Source: Acidobacteriota bacterium (GTDB lineage: Bacteria; Acidobacteriota; Blastocatellia; Pyrinomonadales; Pyrinomonadaceae). From it: a stretch of 64,000 nt of DNA. Position 1 is the first letter of the stretch; the number at the start of each line of letters is the position of its first letter. Shown piece after piece: positions 2,690-54,600 of this stretch. Location: contig JAVHWW010000075.1 of assembly GCA_032159235.1 (NCBI GenBank), positions 3,717-67,716 of the forward strand. The letters are read 5' to 3'. The position numbers and the translations under genes were made by a program. The notes under the pieces are model-generated. The model was not told the origin of the DNA, made no database searches, and saw only the letters and a program-made list of their open reading frames with translations.

Positions 2690-3112
2690 GTGTCAACGAC
2701 TGAAACCATTCTTCCTCCCGCCAATCAACAGGGTCTCGACATCCGCTCGACGCCACGCGCTGAGATGAATCTTTACCCGCTCGACACTTTCCAGTATGAA
2801 TTCGTCGGGCGCGAAATTAGTATCAACTTTGAGATACCGGAATTCACGGCCATCTGTCCGTTCTCGGATTTCCCGGACTTCGCCATCATCCGTCTCGAGT
2901 ATGTCCCGAACGAACGCTGCATCGAACTCAAGAGCCTGAAACTCTACATCAACTCATTTCGTGAGGTGAAAATTTTCCACGAGCACGTCATCAACATCAT
3001 CCTCGAAGACTTCGTTGCCGCCTGCGATCCCTTGCGCGTGGAGATTGAAGGCGACTTCCACATTCGCGGAAACATTAAGACTATTGTCAGAGCGAGATAC
3101 GAAAAACAGTAG
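2690..3112 (+). CDS. queF: NADPH-dependent 7-cyano-7-deazaguanine reductase (type I QueF)
   Basis: [14 protein letters not shown] catalytic-Cys region and the ELKSLKLY QueF motif. GTG 2690 is preceded by AGGAG (2677-2681). The longer ORF from 2564 reads through the family D hairpin and is rejected. Confidence 0.85.
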
Positions 3113-3138
3113 TCAGTGGTCGGTGGTCGGTGGTCAGT
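3113..3138. repeat. Family A left arm (GTGGTCR 7-mers), split element
   Basis: TCAGTGGTCGGTGGTCGGTGGTCAGT directly after the queF TAG (3110-3112). Complementary to 3548-3578, 410 nt downstream. Confidence 0.8.
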
Positions 3139-3159
3139 TAAACGAAGGAGTATCGGCTG

Positions 3160-3552
3160 ATGCCACTTAAAAGTTACGGCGAGTTGATTGCTTGGCAGAA
3201 GGCTATGGATTTGGTGCAAAGTGTTTATGAAGCGGTCAGGGCTTTTCCGAAAGAGGAGATTTATGGATTAACGAGCCAGTTGAAGCGGGCTGCGGTTTCC
3301 GTGCCATCGAACATTGCCGAAGGGCAAGGGCGCAAGTCCACTCGTGAATTTCTACATCATTTATCTATCGCCTATGGCTCACTCATGGAAGTGGAAACAC
3401 AAATACTCATCGCAGTCAGGCTTGACTATTTGAGTCAACAAGATGCCGAACGGATTATTGAACGAACATCGGAAGTCGGTCGGCTCATCAACGGCTTATC
3501 GAATGCTCTGGCTAATAAACAAACTGAAGCTGCCACAGCACTGAACAACTGA
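3160..3552 (+). CDS. Four-helix-bundle protein (23S rRNA intervening-sequence protein / Avd family)
   Basis: AWQKAMDLV...LKRAAVSVPSNIAEGQGR...EFLHHLSIAYGSLMEVETQ is the family signature. GAAGGAG at 3144-3150. The TGA stop lies inside the right arm of the family A repeat. Confidence 0.85.
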   Translation: MPLKSYGELIAWQKAMDLVQSVYEAVRAFPKEEIYGLTSQLKRAAVSVPSNIAEGQGRKSTREFLHHLSIAYGSLMEVETQILIAVRLDYLSQQDAERIIERTSEVGRLINGLSNALANKQTEAATALNN

Positions 3553-3578
3553 CCACCGACCACTGACCACTGACCACT
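3548..3578. repeat. Family A right arm (TGACCAC 7-mers), split element
   Basis: ACTGACCACCGACCACTGACCACTGACCACT, reverse complement of 3113-3138. Followed 4 nt later by the ATG at 3583. Confidence 0.8.
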
Positions 3579-10649: not shown

Positions 10650-10728
10650 CAGTGGTTAGTAGTCAGTGGTCAGTGGGCAGTAAAAACAGCTTTTCAACTG
10701 ACCACTGACCACTGACCACTGACCACTG
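10650..10728 (-). repeat. Family A palindromic element (core in minus orientation)
   Basis: Left arm 10650-10681 (degenerate GTGGTYA units), loop AAAAACAGCTTTTCAA 10682-10697, right arm 10698-10728 (4x CTGACCA). Confidence 0.85.
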
Positions 10729-10842: not shown

Positions 10843-12180
10843 ATGGTCAAAGATGAGGTCACGAATTTAATAGAATCGAGAGGCGCACGCATCGGCGTCA
10901 TTGGCCTGGGCTACGTCGGCCTGCCGCTCCTCGTGGAATTTGCGCGCAACGGCTTCGACTCAACAGGCTTTGAAGTTGACGAAACGAAAGCGGCTGAGAT
11001 TAACAATGGGCGCTCTTACATCGGTGATGTTCCCGCCTCCGCCGTCAGGGAACTGACGGAAGCGAAACGTCTGCGCGCCACCACCCAGTTCGAGCATCTG
11101 AAAAATTGCGACGCCATCATCATCTGCGTGCCGACGCCGCTCCGCAAGACCAAAGAGCCTGATGTCTCTTACATCCTCGCTGCCGCCGAAGAGATTAAGC
11201 AGAACCTCAGACGCGGCCAACTGATCGTCCTTGAGTCAACCACCTATCCGGGCACAACAGATGAAGTGTTGCTTCCGATGTTTGAAGAGACCGGCCTCAA
11301 GCTCGATGATGATTTCCTGCTTGCCTTCTCGCCTGAGAGAGTTGATCCCGGCAATCCGCAGTTTCAAACGCACAACATTCCGAAAGTCGTCGGCGGCTGC
11401 ACGGACGCTTCGACCGAAGCGGCAGCGCAACTCTATTCGCAGATCGTCAAGGAAGTCTTCGCCGTTAGCTCGGCGCGCGTCGCCGAAGCCGCCAAACTTC
11501 TGGAGAATACTTTTCGCGCCGTCAACATCGGCATGGCTAACGAGATGGCGCGGCTCTGCTACACCTTGAATATAGATACCTGGGAGGTCATCAAGGCGGC
11601 GGCGACCAAACCTTTCGGCTTCATGCCGTTTTATCCCGGCCCTGGAATTGGAGGACACTGTATTCCGTTGGACCCGCATTACCTCTCATGGAAAGCGCGG
11701 CAGCATGGATTCGATTCGCGCTTCATCGGATTGGCCGAAGAAGTCAACTCGCGGATGCCTGAGCACGTCGTGCAACTCATCTCCGATGGTTTGAACGATG
11801 CGGAGAAGCCTTTGAAGGGATCGCGCGTGCTATTGCTGGGCGTGGCTTACAAGAAGGACATCAACGATGTGCGCGAGAGTCCGGCGCTTTCGATCATTGA
11901 TCTCTTGCGCGCCAAAGGCGCTCGCGTCAGTTACCACGATCCGTTCGTCTCGGAAGTCAGATTCGATGACTCGCACACGCAGAGTGCTGGCGATCCGATT
12001 CAATCAATCGCCCTCACGGATGAAGAATTGCGCGCGTCCGATTGCATCGTGATCGTCACCGACCACAGCGAGATTAACTATCGCCGCGTCACCGACCTCG
12101 CCACGCTCATCGTTGACACACGCAACGCCCTCAACGGTGAACTGCGCCGCGAGAGCAAGGCCAGGGTTATTCGCTTGTAA
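10843..12180 (+). CDS. UDP-N-acetyl-hexosamine 6-dehydrogenase (WecC/WbpA/TviB nucleotide-sugar dehydrogenase family)
   Basis: IGVIGLGYVGLPL Rossmann motif, catalytic GGHCIPLDP region, 445 aa. Confidence 0.9.
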   Translation: MVKDEVTNLIESRGARIGVIGLGYVGLPLLVEFARNGFDSTGFEVDETKAAEINNGRSYIGDVPASAVRELTEAKRLRATTQFEHLKNCDAIIICVPTPLRKTKEPDVSYILAAAEEIKQNLRRGQLIVLESTTYPGTTDEVLLPMFEETGLKLDDDFLLAFSPERVDPGNPQFQTHNIPKVVGGCTDASTEAAAQLYSQIVKEVFAVSSARVAEAAKLLENTFRAVNIGMANEMARLCYTLNIDTWEVIKAAATKPFGFMPFYPGPGIGGHCIPLDPHYLSWKARQHGFDSRFIGLAEEVNSRMPEHVVQLISDGLNDAEKPLKGSRVLLLGVAYKKDINDVRESPALSIIDLLRAKGARVSYHDPFVSEVRFDDSHTQSAGDPIQSIALTDEELRASDCIVIVTDHSEINYRRVTDLATLIVDTRNALNGELRRESKARVIRL

Positions 12181-12251
12181 AGTGGTCAGTGGTCAGTGGT
12201 CAGTTGAAAAGCTGAACCAACTGACCACTGACCACTGACCACTGACCACTG
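12181..12251 (+). repeat. Family A palindromic element (core in plus orientation)
   Basis: Left arm 12181-12204 starts at the nt after the TAA (12178-12180). Loop TGAAAAGCTGAACCAA 12205-12220. Right arm 12221-12251. ATG at 12256. Confidence 0.9.
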
Positions 12252-12255
12252 CTTT

Positions 12256-13368
12256 ATGAAAATTCTCAACGTCGTCGGCGCGCGTCCCAATTTCATGAAG
12301 GTCGCGCCCATTGTTGAAGCGATGAAGCGGCGCGCGAGCGCGTTTACGCCGCTCGTCGTACACACGGGGCAGCACTACGACGCGCAGATGTCGGATGCTT
12401 TCTTTCGTGATCTGGGTCTGCCCGAACCCGACGTTTATCTGGGCGTCGGCTCAGGCTCTCACGCGGCGCAAACTGCCGCCGTAATGAAGAGTTTCGAGCC
12501 AATCGTGCTCGATGAGAAACCCGACTGGGTGCTCGTCGTCGGCGATGTCAACTCGACGCTGGCGTGCGCGCTCGTCTGCTCGAAGTTGCTGGTGAAAGTC
12601 GCGCACGTCGAAGCGGGCCTTCGCAGCCGCGACCGCACGATGCCCGAAGAGATCAATCGTCTGCTGACGGATCAGATCGCAGACCTTTTGCTGACGCCCT
12701 CACCAGACGCCGACGAGAACTTGAAAGCCGAAGGAATCCCGCAGGAGCGCATCCGCTTTGTCGGCAACGTGATGATTGATTCGCTCTTCAGTCAACTCAA
12801 GCGCGCCGAACAATCAACTGTGCGCGAAGACTTGGGCGTGGCCGGAAAGGATTACGCCGCGCTCACTCTTCATCGTCCATCAAATGTTGATGATGCGACA
12901 ACATTCAAACGCATCCTCGACGCGCTCGACGAGATTAGCCAACGCCTGCCAATCATCTTTCCCGTTCATCCGCGCACGCGCGCACGCCTTGCAGAGTTTG
13001 GCTTCAACGATTTAATTACCCGCGCGCCGAATCTTCGTCTCATCGAACCGCTCGGCTATCTGGATTTTCTACGGCTCTATAGCGGCGCGCGTCTCGTGCT
13101 CACGGATTCCGGCGGCATTCAGGAAGAGACAACCGCGCTCGGCATTCCCTGTCTCACGCTGCGCGAGAACACGGAGCGTCCCATCACAGTAGAGATGGGC
13201 ACGAACATCGTCGTCGGCACAAACACAGAGAAGATCACACACGCGGCATTCAACACGCTCGACACGCCGCGCGACCAGCAAACGACGCGCGTCCCGCCGC
13301 TCTGGGACGGCCACACGGCTGACCGTATCCTCGACGCGCTTCTCGAAGGGATGAGGGATGAGGGATGA
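12256..13368 (+). CDS. wecB: UDP-N-acetylglucosamine 2-epimerase (non-hydrolysing)
   Basis: MKILNVVGARPNFMKVAPI...HTGQHYD...GDVNSTLA...DSGGIQEE are canonical WecB motifs. The last 7 codons (GMRDEG) are encoded by the family B repeat arm. Confidence 0.9.
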   Translation: MKILNVVGARPNFMKVAPIVEAMKRRASAFTPLVVHTGQHYDAQMSDAFFRDLGLPEPDVYLGVGSGSHAAQTAAVMKSFEPIVLDEKPDWVLVVGDVNSTLACALVCSKLLVKVAHVEAGLRSRDRTMPEEINRLLTDQIADLLLTPSPDADENLKAEGIPQERIRFVGNVMIDSLFSQLKRAEQSTVREDLGVAGKDYAALTLHRPSNVDDATTFKRILDALDEISQRLPIIFPVHPRTRARLAEFGFNDLITRAPNLRLIEPLGYLDFLRLYSGARLVLTDSGGIQEETTALGIPCLTLRENTERPITVEMGTNIVVGTNTEKITHAAFNTLDTPRDQQTTRVPPLWDGHTADRILDALLEGMRDEG

Positions 13369-13425
13369 GGGATGAAGAAAAGAAAGTCTTAAAATTCATC
13401 CCTCATCCCTCATCCCTCATCCCTC
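13348..13425. repeat. Family B palindromic element (7-nt unit GGGATGA)
   Basis: Left arm 4x GGGATGA 13348-13375, loop 13376-13395, right arm 4x TCATCCC 13396-13425. Contains the wecB stop. Confidence 0.9.
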
Positions 13426-13523
13426 AGCTACGGCGCGCTCTGCGTGGTGAAGTTGATGCGCGCACACTTGCGCTGGAAGCGTGGAGACGCAGCCGCACGC
13501 AGCGTGAGCGACGGCGTGAGCGA

Positions 13524-23737: not shown

Positions 23738-24970
23738 ATTTTCACAGGAAAATCCATCATCTGCTTTGCCGGTGAAGATTGGTGGTATCACCATCCGCAC
23801 TCGAAGAACCACTTGATGCGCAGGTTTGCGCGTGCAGGCAATAAGGTCATCTTCGTCAATTCGATTTCGATGGGTTTGGCTTCTGTCACGAACAAGGACT
23901 TGCTTCCGCGCGTGGCGAGAAAGTTGAAATCTTACGCGAAGCTGGCGCGCACGACGGAAGAAGGCATCACTGTAGTCTCACCTGCCGCGTTGCCTTTCTT
24001 CGGGAGTCGCGCCTCGCGTGCAGCTAATCGTCATCTACTGAGCGCGCAGGTCGGGGCGCTGGCGCGCAGTCGTGGACTCAGGAATCCTATCTTGTGGATT
24101 GCTATTCCGACAGCCGTTGAGATGATCGGACGGCTTCATGAGCAGTTGGTCGTTTACCAAGTCTCGGATAAGTACGACGCGAACACGATGGATCACGCGA
24201 CCGACCCAAAGACGATTCGCATCCTGCACGAACGCGCGTTAGATTCCGCCGACATCATCTTATATTCGGGACGCAAACTTCTGGCGGAAGCGACCAATGG
24301 GCGCGAGCGTTCATTTCTTTTGGAGCAAGCGGTTGATTTCGAGCACTGGGCGCGTGTAGGAAGCGGAGAGCTTGAAGTTGCGGAAGAAGTCGCACAGATT
24401 CCACGTCCGCGCATCGGCTACTTCGGCGCGATTGAACCCTGGCTCGTGGATCAGGAGTTAATCAAGCGGGCCTCGCGCGAACGTCCTCTCTGGCATTGGG
24501 TCTTCATCGGCAATCGCTCGCGCGGGCTTGAGATTGAAAATTTGCCGAACGTGCATTTTATTCCGCCCGTGAAATACGATGAGCTGCCACGCTACGCCGC
24601 AGGCTTCGACGTCTGCGTGCTGCCGTGGGAGACTGAGCAGACGTTCACCTCTTACGGCTCGGCTATCAAGGTGCGAGAATATCTGGCGACCGGCAAGCCC
24701 GTCGTCATCGCGCCGCTCCCCGAATATGAGCCGATGGCGGATGTGCTACGCATCGCTCGCAGCCGCGATGACTTTCTCAGGTTGGTTGAGGATGCGCTTG
24801 ACGAACAGGGAACTGAGCAGGCGCTCGCTCGCCAGGCCGCAGTGAGAGGTGGAACATGGGACGCGCGCGCAGAATGGGTCAGTAATTTAATTGAAGAAGC
24901 ACTGAAGAAAAAGTGGTCAGTGGTCAGTGGTCAGTGGTCAGTTGAAAAGACTGAACCGACTGACCACTGA
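23738..24970 (+). CDS. GT-B glycosyltransferase; probable non-canonical ATT start
   Basis: The first ATG (23813) truncates the conserved N-terminus. In-frame upstream codons read FTGKSIICFAGEDWWYHHPHSKNHL after TAG 23711-13. ATT 23738 sits 7 nt after GGAGA (23726-30). The C-terminal 19 codons are read from the family A repeat. Confidence 0.7.
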   Translation: MFTGKSIICFAGEDWWYHHPHSKNHLMRRFARAGNKVIFVNSISMGLASVTNKDLLPRVARKLKSYAKLARTTEEGITVVSPAALPFFGSRASRAANRHLLSAQVGALARSRGLRNPILWIAIPTAVEMIGRLHEQLVVYQVSDKYDANTMDHATDPKTIRILHERALDSADIILYSGRKLLAEATNGRERSFLLEQAVDFEHWARVGSGELEVAEEVAQIPRPRIGYFGAIEPWLVDQELIKRASRERPLWHWVFIGNRSRGLEIENLPNVHFIPPVKYDELPRYAAGFDVCVLPWETEQTFTSYGSAIKVREYLATGKPVVIAPLPEYEPMADVLRIARSRDDFLRLVEDALDEQGTEQALARQAAVRGGTWDARAEWVSNLIEEALKKKWSVVSGQWSVEKTEPTDH

Positions 24971-24989
24971 CCACTGACCACTGACCACT
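24912..24989 (+). repeat. Family A palindromic element (core in plus orientation)
   Basis: Left arm 24912-24942, loop TGAAAAGACTGAACCGA 24943-24959, right arm 24960-24989. Contains the GT stop (24968-70). ATG of the next gene at 24994. Confidence 0.9.
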
Positions 24990-34649: not shown

Positions 34650-35051
34650 ATGGTGTTGATGAGTGAGCCTGCGAAGAGGCCGGGCAGGCCGCGCGCACTG
34701 GTCGTTGACGACGCGCCAGACGTGACCGAGATGCTCGCCATGTTTCTTGAGCACGCGGGCTATGAAACGGTCATGGCCTTCTCCGCCATCGAAGCTCTCG
34801 AAGTGGCGCAACAGGATAAATTTGAAATCATCGTCTCCGACATCGGAATGCCGGGCATGAACGGCTACGATCTGGCTGTCGCGCTGCGCGCCCTGCCGGA
34901 ATACACGGACGTGCCGATGATCGCCGTCACAGGCTTCTCAATGTACGACGACCGGGGCCGCGCGCTTCAATCCGGCTTCAACGCCCACCTGACTAAACCC
35001 ATCAGTCCGATGACGCTCCTCGACCTGATTAAGAAATTGAGAGAGGGATGA
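34650..35051 (+). CDS. Single-domain response regulator (CheY-like receiver)
   Basis: VVDDAPD, IIVSDIGMPGMNG, AVTGF and LTKP correspond to the DD, phospho-Asp, T and K positions. ATG 34650 is chosen over the upstream ORF start 34536. Confidence 0.8.
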   Translation: MVLMSEPAKRPGRPRALVVDDAPDVTEMLAMFLEHAGYETVMAFSAIEALEVAQQDKFEIIVSDIGMPGMNGYDLAVALRALPEYTDVPMIAVTGFSMYDDRGRALQSGFNAHLTKPISPMTLLDLIKKLREG

Positions 35052-35055
35052 AGAA

Positions 35056-35159
35056 CAGAAGTCAGGAGTCAGAATCCAGAATCCAGAATACTAAGGCGGA
35101 AACCGCGTCCACAGATTTTGTTTTTATTCTGACTCCTGACTTCTGGATTCTGAATGCTG
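35056..35159 (-). repeat. Family E palindromic element (core in minus orientation)
   Basis: Left arm 35056-35090, right arm 35125-35159. The reverse complement of the loop, AAAACAAAATCTGTGGACGCGGTTTCCGCCTTAGTATTC, aligns with the cores at 54196-54230 and 55656-55696. Confidence 0.9.
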
Positions 35160-35168
35160 CTTTAACAA

Positions 35169-37340
35169 ATGCCTGATACTAGCGAGGAAACGGTAGATAA
35201 CGTCGAGGTCGAGCAAGCGAAGGAGCAGGCAGGGTTCTTCGGGAAGGAGACGACTTACTACGCCGCGCTCCTGCTCATCGGCGCAGTCGTCATCGGACTC
35301 ATCTTCCGCAAGTTGCAATACGCTACGCAGTCCGTCTGCTGCGGCGACTTCGACGGCTACTATCACATCAAGTGGAGTCGTCTGCTCTGGGAAGGAATGA
35401 AGCAGGGACATTTCCCGCCGACCTTCAAGTGGCTGCCACTCACGACGCTCAATCCGCAGGCTTACGCAGATCATCATCTCTTCTTCCACTTCCTACAGAT
35501 TCCGTTCACATGGTTCAGCGACCTGCGCGCGGGCGCGAAAGCCGCCTCGTGGCTTTACGCCACGCTCGCAGTTCTTTCGTGCTACTGGTTAATCCTGCGC
35601 TATCGCATTCGCCACACGCTCATCTGGTTAATCGCACTGCTGGCCTGCTCCGCGCCGTTTCTCTATCGGATGAACATGGCGAAAGCGCCGCCCGTCGCCA
35701 TCATCTTTATGGTCATCGGCATCTATCTGCTCTTTGAAGAGAGATACTTGCTGCTGCTGCCCCTCGCCTTTCTGTTCGCCTGGACTTACAGCCTGTTCGT
35801 CACACTCGTTGGAGCTGCTTTCATCTGGTCGTGCGTGGTGAGTTGGAGCGAGCGGCGTCTTGAGTGGCGACCTTGCGTCTGGGCATTTATTGGAGCGGCG
35901 GCGGGCTTAGTAATCAATCCATATTTTCCGAAGAACGTCTGGCTCCTGGTCGAGCACATTCTGATTAAAGCGACGGTCACGGGCTTCACAACAGAAGTCG
36001 GACAGGAATGGTCTCCTTATGATAGCTGGTTTCTTTTGGGAAGTTGCCTCATCGCTTTCGTTGCCATGATCGTTGGCTATGCGGCTTATGACTCGTCGGA
36101 TAAAAAACGCGCTGCACGCCCGCTCTTCTTCCTCTTCTTTTCGACGGCCTTGATGATTATCAGTTTTCGCTCGCGGCGCTGGGTCGAATACTGGCCGCCG
36201 TTCGCTGTGCTGTTCGCGGCCTTCAGTCTCAAACCGCTTCTCGAAGGCGCGCGTGCCGCTATCGGTCGCTTGCCGAGCGAGGTGCTGGATGAATTGCAAC
36301 CTTTCTTAGACCGAAATGAACCGCCCGGTGCGGTTGAAAGCGAGCGCCGCAGAGACTTCTGGAAAGAGATCGAGATGGCCGCCATCGGCATCGCGCTCGG
36401 TCTCGCGGGCTACTTCGTCTTGAAGCAGATTTTCTACCGACCGCCCAATCATTCGGTCGTCTATGTGCTACTCGAACCTAAAGTCTTCGTTGTCATCGCC
36501 GTCTTCCTGATCGGTTTTGCAGCTTACGTTTTCTGGCGTCGTAGTCTGACCAAAGCCTTCGCTGCCTTGCTCGTCTTCGCTCTCGTCGTCATCTTGAATT
36601 TCAACCTGCACGAGACGCGCAAGGACATCGCGGGCGACGCCAAGCCGGAACATTACGAGGCTTCGATGGCCTGGATACGCGACAACGTGCCGCCCGGAGA
36701 AACCATCTTCAATACGGACTGGGACGATTTCCCGAAGATGTTTTTCTACGACACCAATCACGTTTACATCTCCGGCCTCGACCCGACTTACCTGCTCGAC
36801 AGAGACAATCAACTCAAGCGCGATCCGAGTCTGGCCGAACTCTTCAAGAAGATTACGCTCGGCCAGGATGTGACAATCAACGGTGAGAAGAAAGAATACG
36901 CGCCGCTCATCCGTGAAAAATTCGGCGCGCGCTACGTCTTCACCGATACCGAACAGGTTCACGACAACTTCTACGGCAACGCGATGGACAGTGGCTGGTT
37001 CGACGAAATACACATCTACACCTTCGAGCGCCAGGACGGTCGCCCGCTCACCGCAAAAGACCTCGACACGCTCAAGCAGACCGCGCCGCCTGAGCTTAGT
37101 GAGTCTCACAATTGGATTCTGATAACCGAAGGCCGCCGCGTCGTCTCCGGCACAACCAAAGATTTCACCTGCGCGGACATCAACGGCATCTGCGATCATT
37201 ACGTCGTCAACAAAGACTTCGATTCCAGAGTGCTACGCATCCGCGACCAGAAAGGCCAGCCGCCACCGGAATCCAAAGACGACACCGGCGATGAGGGCGA
37301 CGAGGGTGATACCGGCGGTGATGATGAGCCGGGAAATTAA
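35169..37340 (+). CDS. Large polytopic membrane protein, GT-C-fold glycosyltransferase-like (possible STT3/PglB/AglB-type)
   Basis: About 13 TM plus a soluble C-domain. GDFDGYYH in the first loop (residues 59-66), TTEVGQE at about 274-280, AWIRDNVPPGETIFNTDWDDF at about 501-521. Acidic C-tail. Confidence 0.6.
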   Translation: MPDTSEETVDNVEVEQAKEQAGFFGKETTYYAALLLIGAVVIGLIFRKLQYATQSVCCGDFDGYYHIKWSRLLWEGMKQGHFPPTFKWLPLTTLNPQAYADHHLFFHFLQIPFTWFSDLRAGAKAASWLYATLAVLSCYWLILRYRIRHTLIWLIALLACSAPFLYRMNMAKAPPVAIIFMVIGIYLLFEERYLLLLPLAFLFAWTYSLFVTLVGAAFIWSCVVSWSERRLEWRPCVWAFIGAAAGLVINPYFPKNVWLLVEHILIKATVTGFTTEVGQEWSPYDSWFLLGSCLIAFVAMIVGYAAYDSSDKKRAARPLFFLFFSTALMIISFRSRRWVEYWPPFAVLFAAFSLKPLLEGARAAIGRLPSEVLDELQPFLDRNEPPGAVESERRRDFWKEIEMAAIGIALGLAGYFVLKQIFYRPPNHSVVYVLLEPKVFVVIAVFLIGFAAYVFWRRSLTKAFAALLVFALVVILNFNLHETRKDIAGDAKPEHYEASMAWIRDNVPPGETIFNTDWDDFPKMFFYDTNHVYISGLDPTYLLDRDNQLKRDPSLAELFKKITLGQDVTINGEKKEYAPLIREKFGARYVFTDTEQVHDNFYGNAMDSGWFDEIHIYTFERQDGRPLTAKDLDTLKQTAPPELSESHNWILITEGRRVVSGTTKDFTCADINGICDHYVVNKDFDSRVLRIRDQKGQPPPESKDDTGDEGDEGDTGGDDEPGN

Positions 37341-47068: not shown

Positions 47069-47159
47069 AGTGGTCAGTGGTCAGTGGTCAGTGGTCAGTG
47101 GTCAGTGGTCAGTCGGTTCAGCTTTTCAACTGACCACTGACCACCGACCACTGACCACT
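47069..47159 (-). repeat. Family A palindromic element (core in minus orientation)
   Basis: Left arm 47069-47113 (6 units), loop CGGTTCAGCTTTTCAA 47114-47129, right arm 47130-47159. Fills the whole gap between the permease stop (47159-61) and the ATPase start (47062). Confidence 0.9.
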
Positions 47160-50120: not shown

Positions 50121-50170
50121 CAGTGGTCAGTGGTCAGTCGGTTCAGCTTCTCAACTGACCACTGACCACT
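50121..50170 (-). repeat. Family A palindromic element, short (core in minus orientation)
   Basis: Left arm 50121-50138, loop CGGTTCAGCTTCTCAA 50139-50154, right arm 50155-50170. Fills the gap between the stop at 50173 and the start at 50118. Confidence 0.85.
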
Positions 50171-54516: not shown

Positions 54517-54600
54517 GGTCAGTGGTCAGTGGTCGGTGGTCAGTGGTCAGATGGCGACGAGTGGTTTTCACTGACCACTGACCACTGACTACCGACCACT
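54517..54600. repeat. Family A palindromic element with divergent loop
   Basis: Left arm 54517-54550, loop ATGGCGACGAGTGGTTTTCA 54551-54570, right arm 54571-54600. Confidence 0.85.

Follow-up and report, generated by a model that had tools for sequence, protein, structure and literature searches.

The closest described counterparts of the hairpins analyzed here are the intervening sequences (IVS) of bacterial 23S rRNA. [quoted passage not shown] Tandem heptamers have been described in other bacteria as well. In the sections of two reports that deal with such repeats, four or five tandem heptamers are located at 49 and 15 sites of the Geobacter metallireducens genome and proposed to be regulator sites (PMC2700814), and GGGAATC and GGGGA(C/T)T repeats are described for Xanthomonas and Nostoc, respectively (PMC4692102). 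Many bacterial genomes contain tandem heptamers in excess, and the latter paper, published in 2015, states that there is no detailed literature on them (PMC4692102).

The hairpins that we term family A have arms made of tandem copies of GTGGTCA. Like the 23S rRNA IVS, they have an ~28-bp stem formed by terminal inverted repeats with heptamers, can carry a PF05635 ORF in the loop, and are transcribed within a host RNA. Unlike the IVS, which are inserted in rRNA helix 9, 25, or 45, family A elements lie between protein-coding genes, most copies have no gene, hairpins of this type number in the hundreds and fall into many heptamer families, and their cutting is proposed by analogy. The REP/REPIN-RAYT systems (PMC3116915, PMC3733652) resemble them in being short palindromes dispersed between genes in tens to hundreds of copies, with, for several of the families here, one gene flanked by its own repeats, with several families per genome, and with long-occupied sites. 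They differ in three respects: the partner is a Y1 HUH transposase in those systems but a 130-residue four-helix-bundle protein here; a GTAG/CGTC head is absent from the arms of family A, which consist of tandem (A)GTGGTCA units; and for some large families, the assembly contains no partner gene. With MITEs (Correia/NEMIS, ERIC, and RUP), family A shares a small size, multiple copies, an interior that is less conserved than the inverted ends, the appearance of a longer, gene-bearing element from which internal sequence has been deleted, and cotranscription with the neighboring genes; unlike MITEs, it has no target-site duplication and no transposase-encoding parent, its ends are tandem heptamers, and its polarity is tied to transcription. 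The cyanobacterial STRR are further heptanucleotide repeat elements. Family A has in common with these, and with the heptamers of Geobacter, Xanthomonas, and Nostoc, arrays of ~4 units, a mostly intergenic location near the upstream ORF, and sites that are conserved in related species as sequence and length vary. It is unlike the latter three in that the heptamer sections of those reports name no partner gene and describe neither a family-specific oriented loop nor a link to PF05635 (PMC2700814, PMC4692102).

We consider it fairly probable, and the best explanation of the data, that family A hairpins derive from a heptamer-hairpin cassette whose PF05635 gene they have lost, that they occupy the gaps between stop and start codons, and that they probably serve as RNase III substrates in the transcript. 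As part of this joint explanation, and with a similar degree of confidence, we take the element at 3107 to 3578 to be the full-length member of the heptamer-armed cassette family in this genome.

In the window (the whole stretch of 64,000 nucleotides that was analyzed), the focal hairpin spans positions 12181 to 12251 on the plus strand and reads A(GTGGTCA)3-GTTGAAAAGCTGAACCAAC-(TGACCAC)4-TG. Its left arm has three units (12182 to 12202), its loop (12203 to 12221) carries the core in the sense direction, and its right arm has four units (12222 to 12249). It fills the gap between two genes: it starts 1 base past the TAA (12178 to 12180) of a UDP-glucose/GDP-mannose dehydrogenase gene, and four bases separate its end from the ATG at 12256, with which a UDP-GlcNAc 2-epimerase gene begins. 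Its predicted RNA fold contains a stem of 26 bp, with a free energy of -54.4 kcal/mol and a z value of -11.6 relative to shuffles. The core is also in sense in the plus-strand hairpin at 24912 to 24989 (4+4 units, loop GTTGAAAAGACTGAACCGAC), whose distance to the next ATG is 5 nt; the glycosyltransferase frame on its upstream side enters the element without meeting a stop codon and terminates at a right-arm TGA. Two hairpins have the core in sense on the minus strand: the one at 47069 to 47159 (6+4 units), whose flanking genes are also on the minus strand, and the short one at 50123 to 50169 (2+2 units). A further minus-strand hairpin, at 10652 to 10726 in a divergent intergenic region, has only AGCTTTTCAAC in common with the core, and the one at 54517 to 54599, also on the minus strand, has GTGAAAACCACTCGTCGCCATC in sense and represents a second loop subfamily (AAAACCACTC..C.CCAAC) of ~8 copies. 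These relations were largely anticipated in the earlier note, which had been made from the letters of this stretch and had reported that the core recurs directly and as its reverse complement. It is indeed present at 12203 and at 24941 to 24959 (starts that had been given as 12204 and 24942, one base too far), and its reverse complement lies at 47113 to 47129 and 50138 to 50154, with a partial match at 10685 to 10697; the two copies singled out as deviant do have, respectively, another loop (54517) and a gene within the hairpin (3113 to 3577). Hairpins of other families, with no strand assigned, are found at 13347 to 13426 (GGGATGA) and at 35044 to 35196 (GAATCCA type, beside a GGGATGA remnant). 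GTGGTCA occurs 50 times in the window, compared with 4.6 occurrences expected and a count that 0 of 100 shuffles reach, and an Rfam scan of the whole window gave zero family matches and no rRNA.

The proteins of the window have their closest relatives in metagenome-assembled genomes of the Pyrinomonadaceae (Acidobacteriota, Blastocatellia). The genome assembly, from a soil acidobacterium of this family (4.41 Mb in 121 contigs, 55.5% GC, and 87% completeness), contains 864 tandem arrays of period 7, versus at most 30 for periods 5, 6, 8, and 9. About 390 of the heptamer arrays form inverted pairs with loops of ≤140 nt, and these belong to more than 15 heptamer families. Family A has 99 members when counted by strict adjacency and ~143 by pattern. 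The second-largest family, CACTTTT/CACTATT, has ~82 copies, and GAATCCA/GAATTCA (~45), CAGTTTT (26), GGGATGA (21), CAAGGTT (19), and GAGTTTT (17) come next. Another 446 arrays in this genome are unpaired, including 69 solo family A arms. Eleven hairpins are located within 150 nt of a contig end (e.g., C5:3, C22:44, C43:82, C71:56, C74:23, and C112:4), so the repeats probably break the assembly.

These hairpins are uniform in build. The length of the arms is sharply peaked, at 4 to 5 units in 76% of them, and the arms of family A are 96.6% identical to the consensus heptamer. Several families have loops of their own, such as the 43-nt loop of GAATCCA, which occurs in both orientations. The short loops of family A are 60% alike in their best orientation (35% when shuffled), and one 19-nt loop, GTCGGTTCAGCTTTTCAAC, recurs without any change at six loci that are unrelated. 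Matches to the 14-mer core with ≤2 mismatches number 23 within family A hairpins, which total ~10.7 kb, and 63 over the rest of the genome (4.4 Mb), an ~150-fold enrichment. The peaked arms, the ~60% similarity of the loops, and the identical loop at six unrelated sites exclude replication slippage and local duplication. The view that family A elements are discrete units instead of slippage products, put forward in the earlier note, is therefore upheld, also by the copy number among congeners (3 to 167 pattern hits); the possibility it had weighed, of loops unrelated genome-wide whose similarity is a local artefact, is at odds with the enrichment of the core and with the 143 copies.

The plus-strand element at 3107 to 3578 has family A arms around a 413-nt cargo. 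The cargo contains an ORF (3160 to 3552, plus strand) for a 130-residue protein that matches the profile of PF05635, the 23S rRNA IVS protein family (bAvd-like), at an E value of 3.9e-40. The protein also matches PDB 2gsc (XCC0516) at an E value of 2e-27, and its only Pfam families are PF05635/PF22296. This is the sole protein encoded in the long copy, in which no transposase domain was detected. PF05635 is widespread and has solved structures; to our knowledge, it has no known role beyond rRNA intervening sequences and Avd-like accessory proteins. The cargo begins with GTTAAACGAAGGAG, an A-rich leader followed by a Shine-Dalgarno (SD) sequence, and ends with CTGAACAAC; its terminal codons CTG AAC AAC are followed by TGA, and this stop codon of the ORF forms the first three bases of the right arm. 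The short-loop core, GTTGAAAAG followed by CTGAAC(C)AAC, resembles the two ends of this cargo joined together. Internal deletion, as in MITEs, is the simplest reading, the match consisting of ~9 and 6 bases in a single cassette. The element at 3107 to 3578 combines an inverted-repeat stem of the ~28-bp type with a PF05635 ORF in the loop, and the short copies retain the stem only.

The association of PF05635 with heptamer arms extends to the whole genome. Ten PF05635 matches fall at 9 loci (two of them on one broken gene), and inverted arms of tandem repeats enclose every one of these loci. No two loci share a unit, the nine being GTGGTCA, AGTTTTC, GAATCCA, GACGCGG, GAGTTTT, AGAGGTT, TGCAAAA, GGGATGA, and one longer unit of 9 to 11 nt. 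Five of these units belong to abundant gene-less families. No PF05635 gene was found in the 87%-complete assembly for CACTTTT/CACTATT, CAAGGTT, or AAGGCAG, the first of these with its ~82 copies. Cargo between inverted arrays was searched up to 2.5 kb, and PF05635 genes were the only kind found; the other long array pairs enclose ordinary host genes that happen to be flanked by two neighboring hairpins. At four loci (C4:36202-36691, C23:23803-24264, C112:2617-2910, and C120:25812-26126), the PF05635 gene is not in a simple loop but in an arm-gene-arm-loop-arm or a hairpin-gene-arm arrangement, which gives the impression of a gene placed beside or inside one arm of a small hairpin. The copy at C18:57626-57942 has in-frame stops (TAG and TGA) between its AGAGGTT arms and probably represents a cassette in decay that belongs to a small family.

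Family A hairpins are closely fitted between stop and start codons. Ninety-nine of the 143 sit between co-directional genes, mostly at -4 to +9 nt from the stop codon and 0 to 9 nt (mode, 4 to 6 nt) from the start codon; for all families, the median distances are 1 nt from stop to hairpin and 5 nt from hairpin to ATG. This narrow space is the preferred place of family A. The adjoining start codon is ATG in every family A case (53 of 53) and in 129 of 138 cases over all families. SD-like motifs accompany 5.6% of the hairpin-adjacent starts, compared with 34% of the genes in a crude gene call and 13% of random sequence, and a stricter count, restricted to motif positions -16 to -8, gave 4.4% versus 30.6%. 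The idea of a split SD, in which the stem would bring an SD motif upstream of the hairpin beside the ATG, was rejected: such motifs occur in 16.5% of the 18-nt segments to the left, versus 12.3% at ordinary gene ends (P = 0.13), and virtual excision of the hairpin yields no peak at normal spacing.

The elements also reach into coding sequence. In 9 of the 99 co-directional family A cases, the upstream frame enters the element by at least 12 nt, and the three longest entries measure 57 to 65 nt, so that the stop codon falls in the right arm. Read from its sequence, the (TGACCAC)n right arm has TGA in all three frames, and (GTGGTCA)n is open in all three. Hairpins flank small genes on both sides (rpsJ, rpsF, and an HU-like gene), which places elements inside operons. 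Over the genome, the 9 nt upstream of family A elements are 44% A and the 9 nt downstream are 38% T (genome T fraction, 22%); a palindrome that fades into A-rich and T-rich flanks may reflect a target preference or older hairpins that were replaced.

The core was said in the earlier note to occur in both orientations. This is correct with respect to the chromosome, where it lies on one strand 34 times and on the other 29 times, but the core does not invert freely. Relative to the transcript, its polarity is sense in 45 cases and antisense in 3: in co-directional contexts, 37 of 40 informative cores are in sense to the flanking genes and 3 are antisense, and in divergent intergenic regions, 8 of 8 are in sense to the adjacent gene. 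The correlation with flanking transcription, which had been raised as a prospect, is thus clear-cut. An alignment-based orientation test, independent of any motif definition, gave a z value of 9.3 for family A, which 0 of 2,000 random flips reached. Since elements flip with gene direction on single contigs (two plus and two minus on C10, both directions on C103), we infer that gene direction explains the bias of the core better than the replication arm does. With regard to other families, GAATCCA has a modest orientation bias (z = 3.0), and the same flip test revealed none in five further families.

Relatives differ in copy number and in family. (GTGGTCA)3 is present in 47 of 151 Pyrinomonadaceae genomes; this genome has 167 matches, three congeners have 62, 5, and 3, and other genera have isolated large expansions of 190, 183, and 82 matches. 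In three other genera, the GTGGTCA hairpins have longer, unrelated loops, which identifies the arms as the conserved module; the core marks the lineage that underwent a recent burst. The focal junction between dehydrogenase and epimerase is occupied differently from one relative to another: L002 has GTGGTCA with another loop, G028 (= L009) has GGAGTCT, G079 has a GAATCCA/CAGGAGT type, and three others have GTAATCA, AGTTTCA, and GCAATCA types; G119 has a 663-nt insert with small ORFs, and a plain spacer of 41 nt is present in L010. The hairpins found at this junction in different Pyrinomonadaceae represent six or more heptamers, and the hairpin family likewise differs in congeners at four further junctions of the window. 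At 35044 to 35196, the GAATCCA hairpin adjoins a GGGATGA remnant, and G028 has (TCATCCC)4 at the same junction, which suggests that the present hairpin replaced an older one by inserting into it. At the site of the 3107 to 3578 cassette, congeners have loops of opposite polarity. The orthologous region of G028 contains a 284-nt insert with the palindromic repeat gtccctacgggac and its mates, beside a solo (TGACCAC)3 arm; this repeat is a second, unrelated REP-like family.

The earlier note likened family A to mobile or recombining units such as MITEs or REP elements. The elements, of ~60 to 100 nt with inverted arms and in ~143 copies, have the small size, terminal inverted repeats, and high copy number of MITEs. 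Target-site duplications, on the other hand, were not borne out, direct repeats at the edges being found at 13 of 140 family A copies, compared with ~12 expected from shuffling. Neither a transposase nor a RAYT nor another enzyme linked to family A was found, and the three congeners, in which synteny with the window ends after ~35 kb, yielded no pair of filled and empty sites. With no target duplication, no enzyme, and no observed movement, we infer mobility rather than observe it.

The link between heptamer and protein is maintained over a wide phylogenetic range. Among the 80 closest homologs of the window's PF05635 protein, which are 52 to 83% identical and come from Acidobacteriota, Chloroflexota, Planctomycetota, Desulfobacterota, and other metagenome-assembled genomes, 60 have a heptamer array adjoining the gene. 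Thirteen of these 60 use GTGGTCA itself, and most of the others use variants that differ by one or two bases, e.g., GTGGGCA, GTGGCCA, GTAGTCA, and GTTGTCA. A noncoding unit of 7 nt that is unchanged at ~57% protein identity is not neutral. In 68 cassettes, protein and heptamer distances are correlated (Mantel test, r = 0.345, reached by 0 of 2,000 permutations), the heptamer distance being 1.75 at a protein p-distance below 0.3 and 3.6 to 3.8 above 0.6, where random pairs give 3.64. Since related cassettes share their arms by descent, covariation alone is no proof of recognition and could stem from the shared descent of whole cassettes instead. We tentatively raise the possibility, doubtful as it is, that each heptamer is the recognition code of its own PF05635 ring protein, which together with a host activity would act in trans to copy hairpins that lack a gene, transcription determining the polarity of the copies.

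Other explanations have to account for the same observations. The hairpins might serve the host as operon punctuation, that is, as immobile RNA elements selected for mRNA processing, stability, or translational coupling, whose families change by gene conversion. The occupation of the same junctions in four congeners despite the change of family, the very tight spacing between stop codon and ATG, the exclusive use of ATG after family A hairpins, the depletion of SD motifs, and the great stability of the stem are all in keeping with such a role. However, arm mismatches that would leave a G.U pair are balanced between the sense (283) and antisense (285) strands, so there is no sign of selection on an RNA stem, and the arms behave like young or DNA-level palindromes. 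Loops are moreover unconstrained across genera, the copy number varies ~50-fold between congeners, a plain 41-nt spacer takes the place of the hairpin in L010, and identical loops at unrelated loci demand copying in any event. We therefore regard host-serving punctuation as unlikely.

The strand symmetry of the mismatches would suit a DNA-level function, in which iteron-like heptamer arrays are bound by a global regulator or a nucleoid protein, as would the conservation of the heptamer across phyla, far beyond neutral expectation; a like proposal was made for the four-heptanucleotide elements of G. metallireducens (PMC2700814). Such binding predicts neither a core polarity that follows transcription nor an intercistronic rather than promoter position (99 of 143 between co-directional genes), and iterons need no inverted pairing of arms, which makes this reading improbable. 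It is highly improbable that the hairpins are replication-slippage microsatellites or intrinsic terminators without unit identity. The arms are tandem repeats, and the A-rich upstream and T-rich downstream flanks recall a terminator, but the arms of the hairpins have a peaked length of 4 to 5 units (76%) and are always paired with an inverted array, the loops are family specific and oriented, and elements lie within operons, including beside rpsJ and rpsF. Intrinsic termination was also rejected directly, as a TTTT run follows the stem in just 7 of 66 sense-oriented family A copies.

If family A hairpins are, as we favor, gene-less derivatives of the PF05635 cassette, internal deletion of the cargo would have produced the short loop, in which GTTRAAAAG would be retained from the A-rich start of the cargo and CTGAAC.AAC from its final codons. 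The arms, and not the loop, would be the module required for propagation and may be recognized by the cognate PF05635 protein. In the transcript, the stem of 26 to 28 bp may be cut by RNase III, as in the 23S rRNA intervening sequences of like build; by the same analogy, cutting would separate one cistron from the next, and the AUG downstream would be preceded by a very short leader. New copies would land in or beside existing hairpins, such that the occupancy of a junction persists and its family changes.

The family A data tie the unexplained 7-base repeats of bacteria to PF05635, a protein family of unexplained function. This genome unites, at scale, hundreds of hairpins, one gene-bearing copy for several of the families, and a polarity tied to transcription. 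New findings are that the polarity is locked to transcription, that the core matches the cargo at its two ends, that a single genome contains the cognate families listed above, and that families replace one another at fixed junctions in congeners; the negative outcomes of the G.U and SD tests are also new. For genome annotation, these elements matter because they take the space of the Shine-Dalgarno sequence, provide stop codons, lengthen ORFs, and break assemblies. If the heptamers do prove to be read as a code by their PF05635 proteins, this would represent a transcription- or RNA-coupled spread of small DNA repeats without a transposase; it would also explain the heptamer repeats of many bacterial phyla and give PF05635/Avd-like proteins a function outside diversity-generating retroelements.
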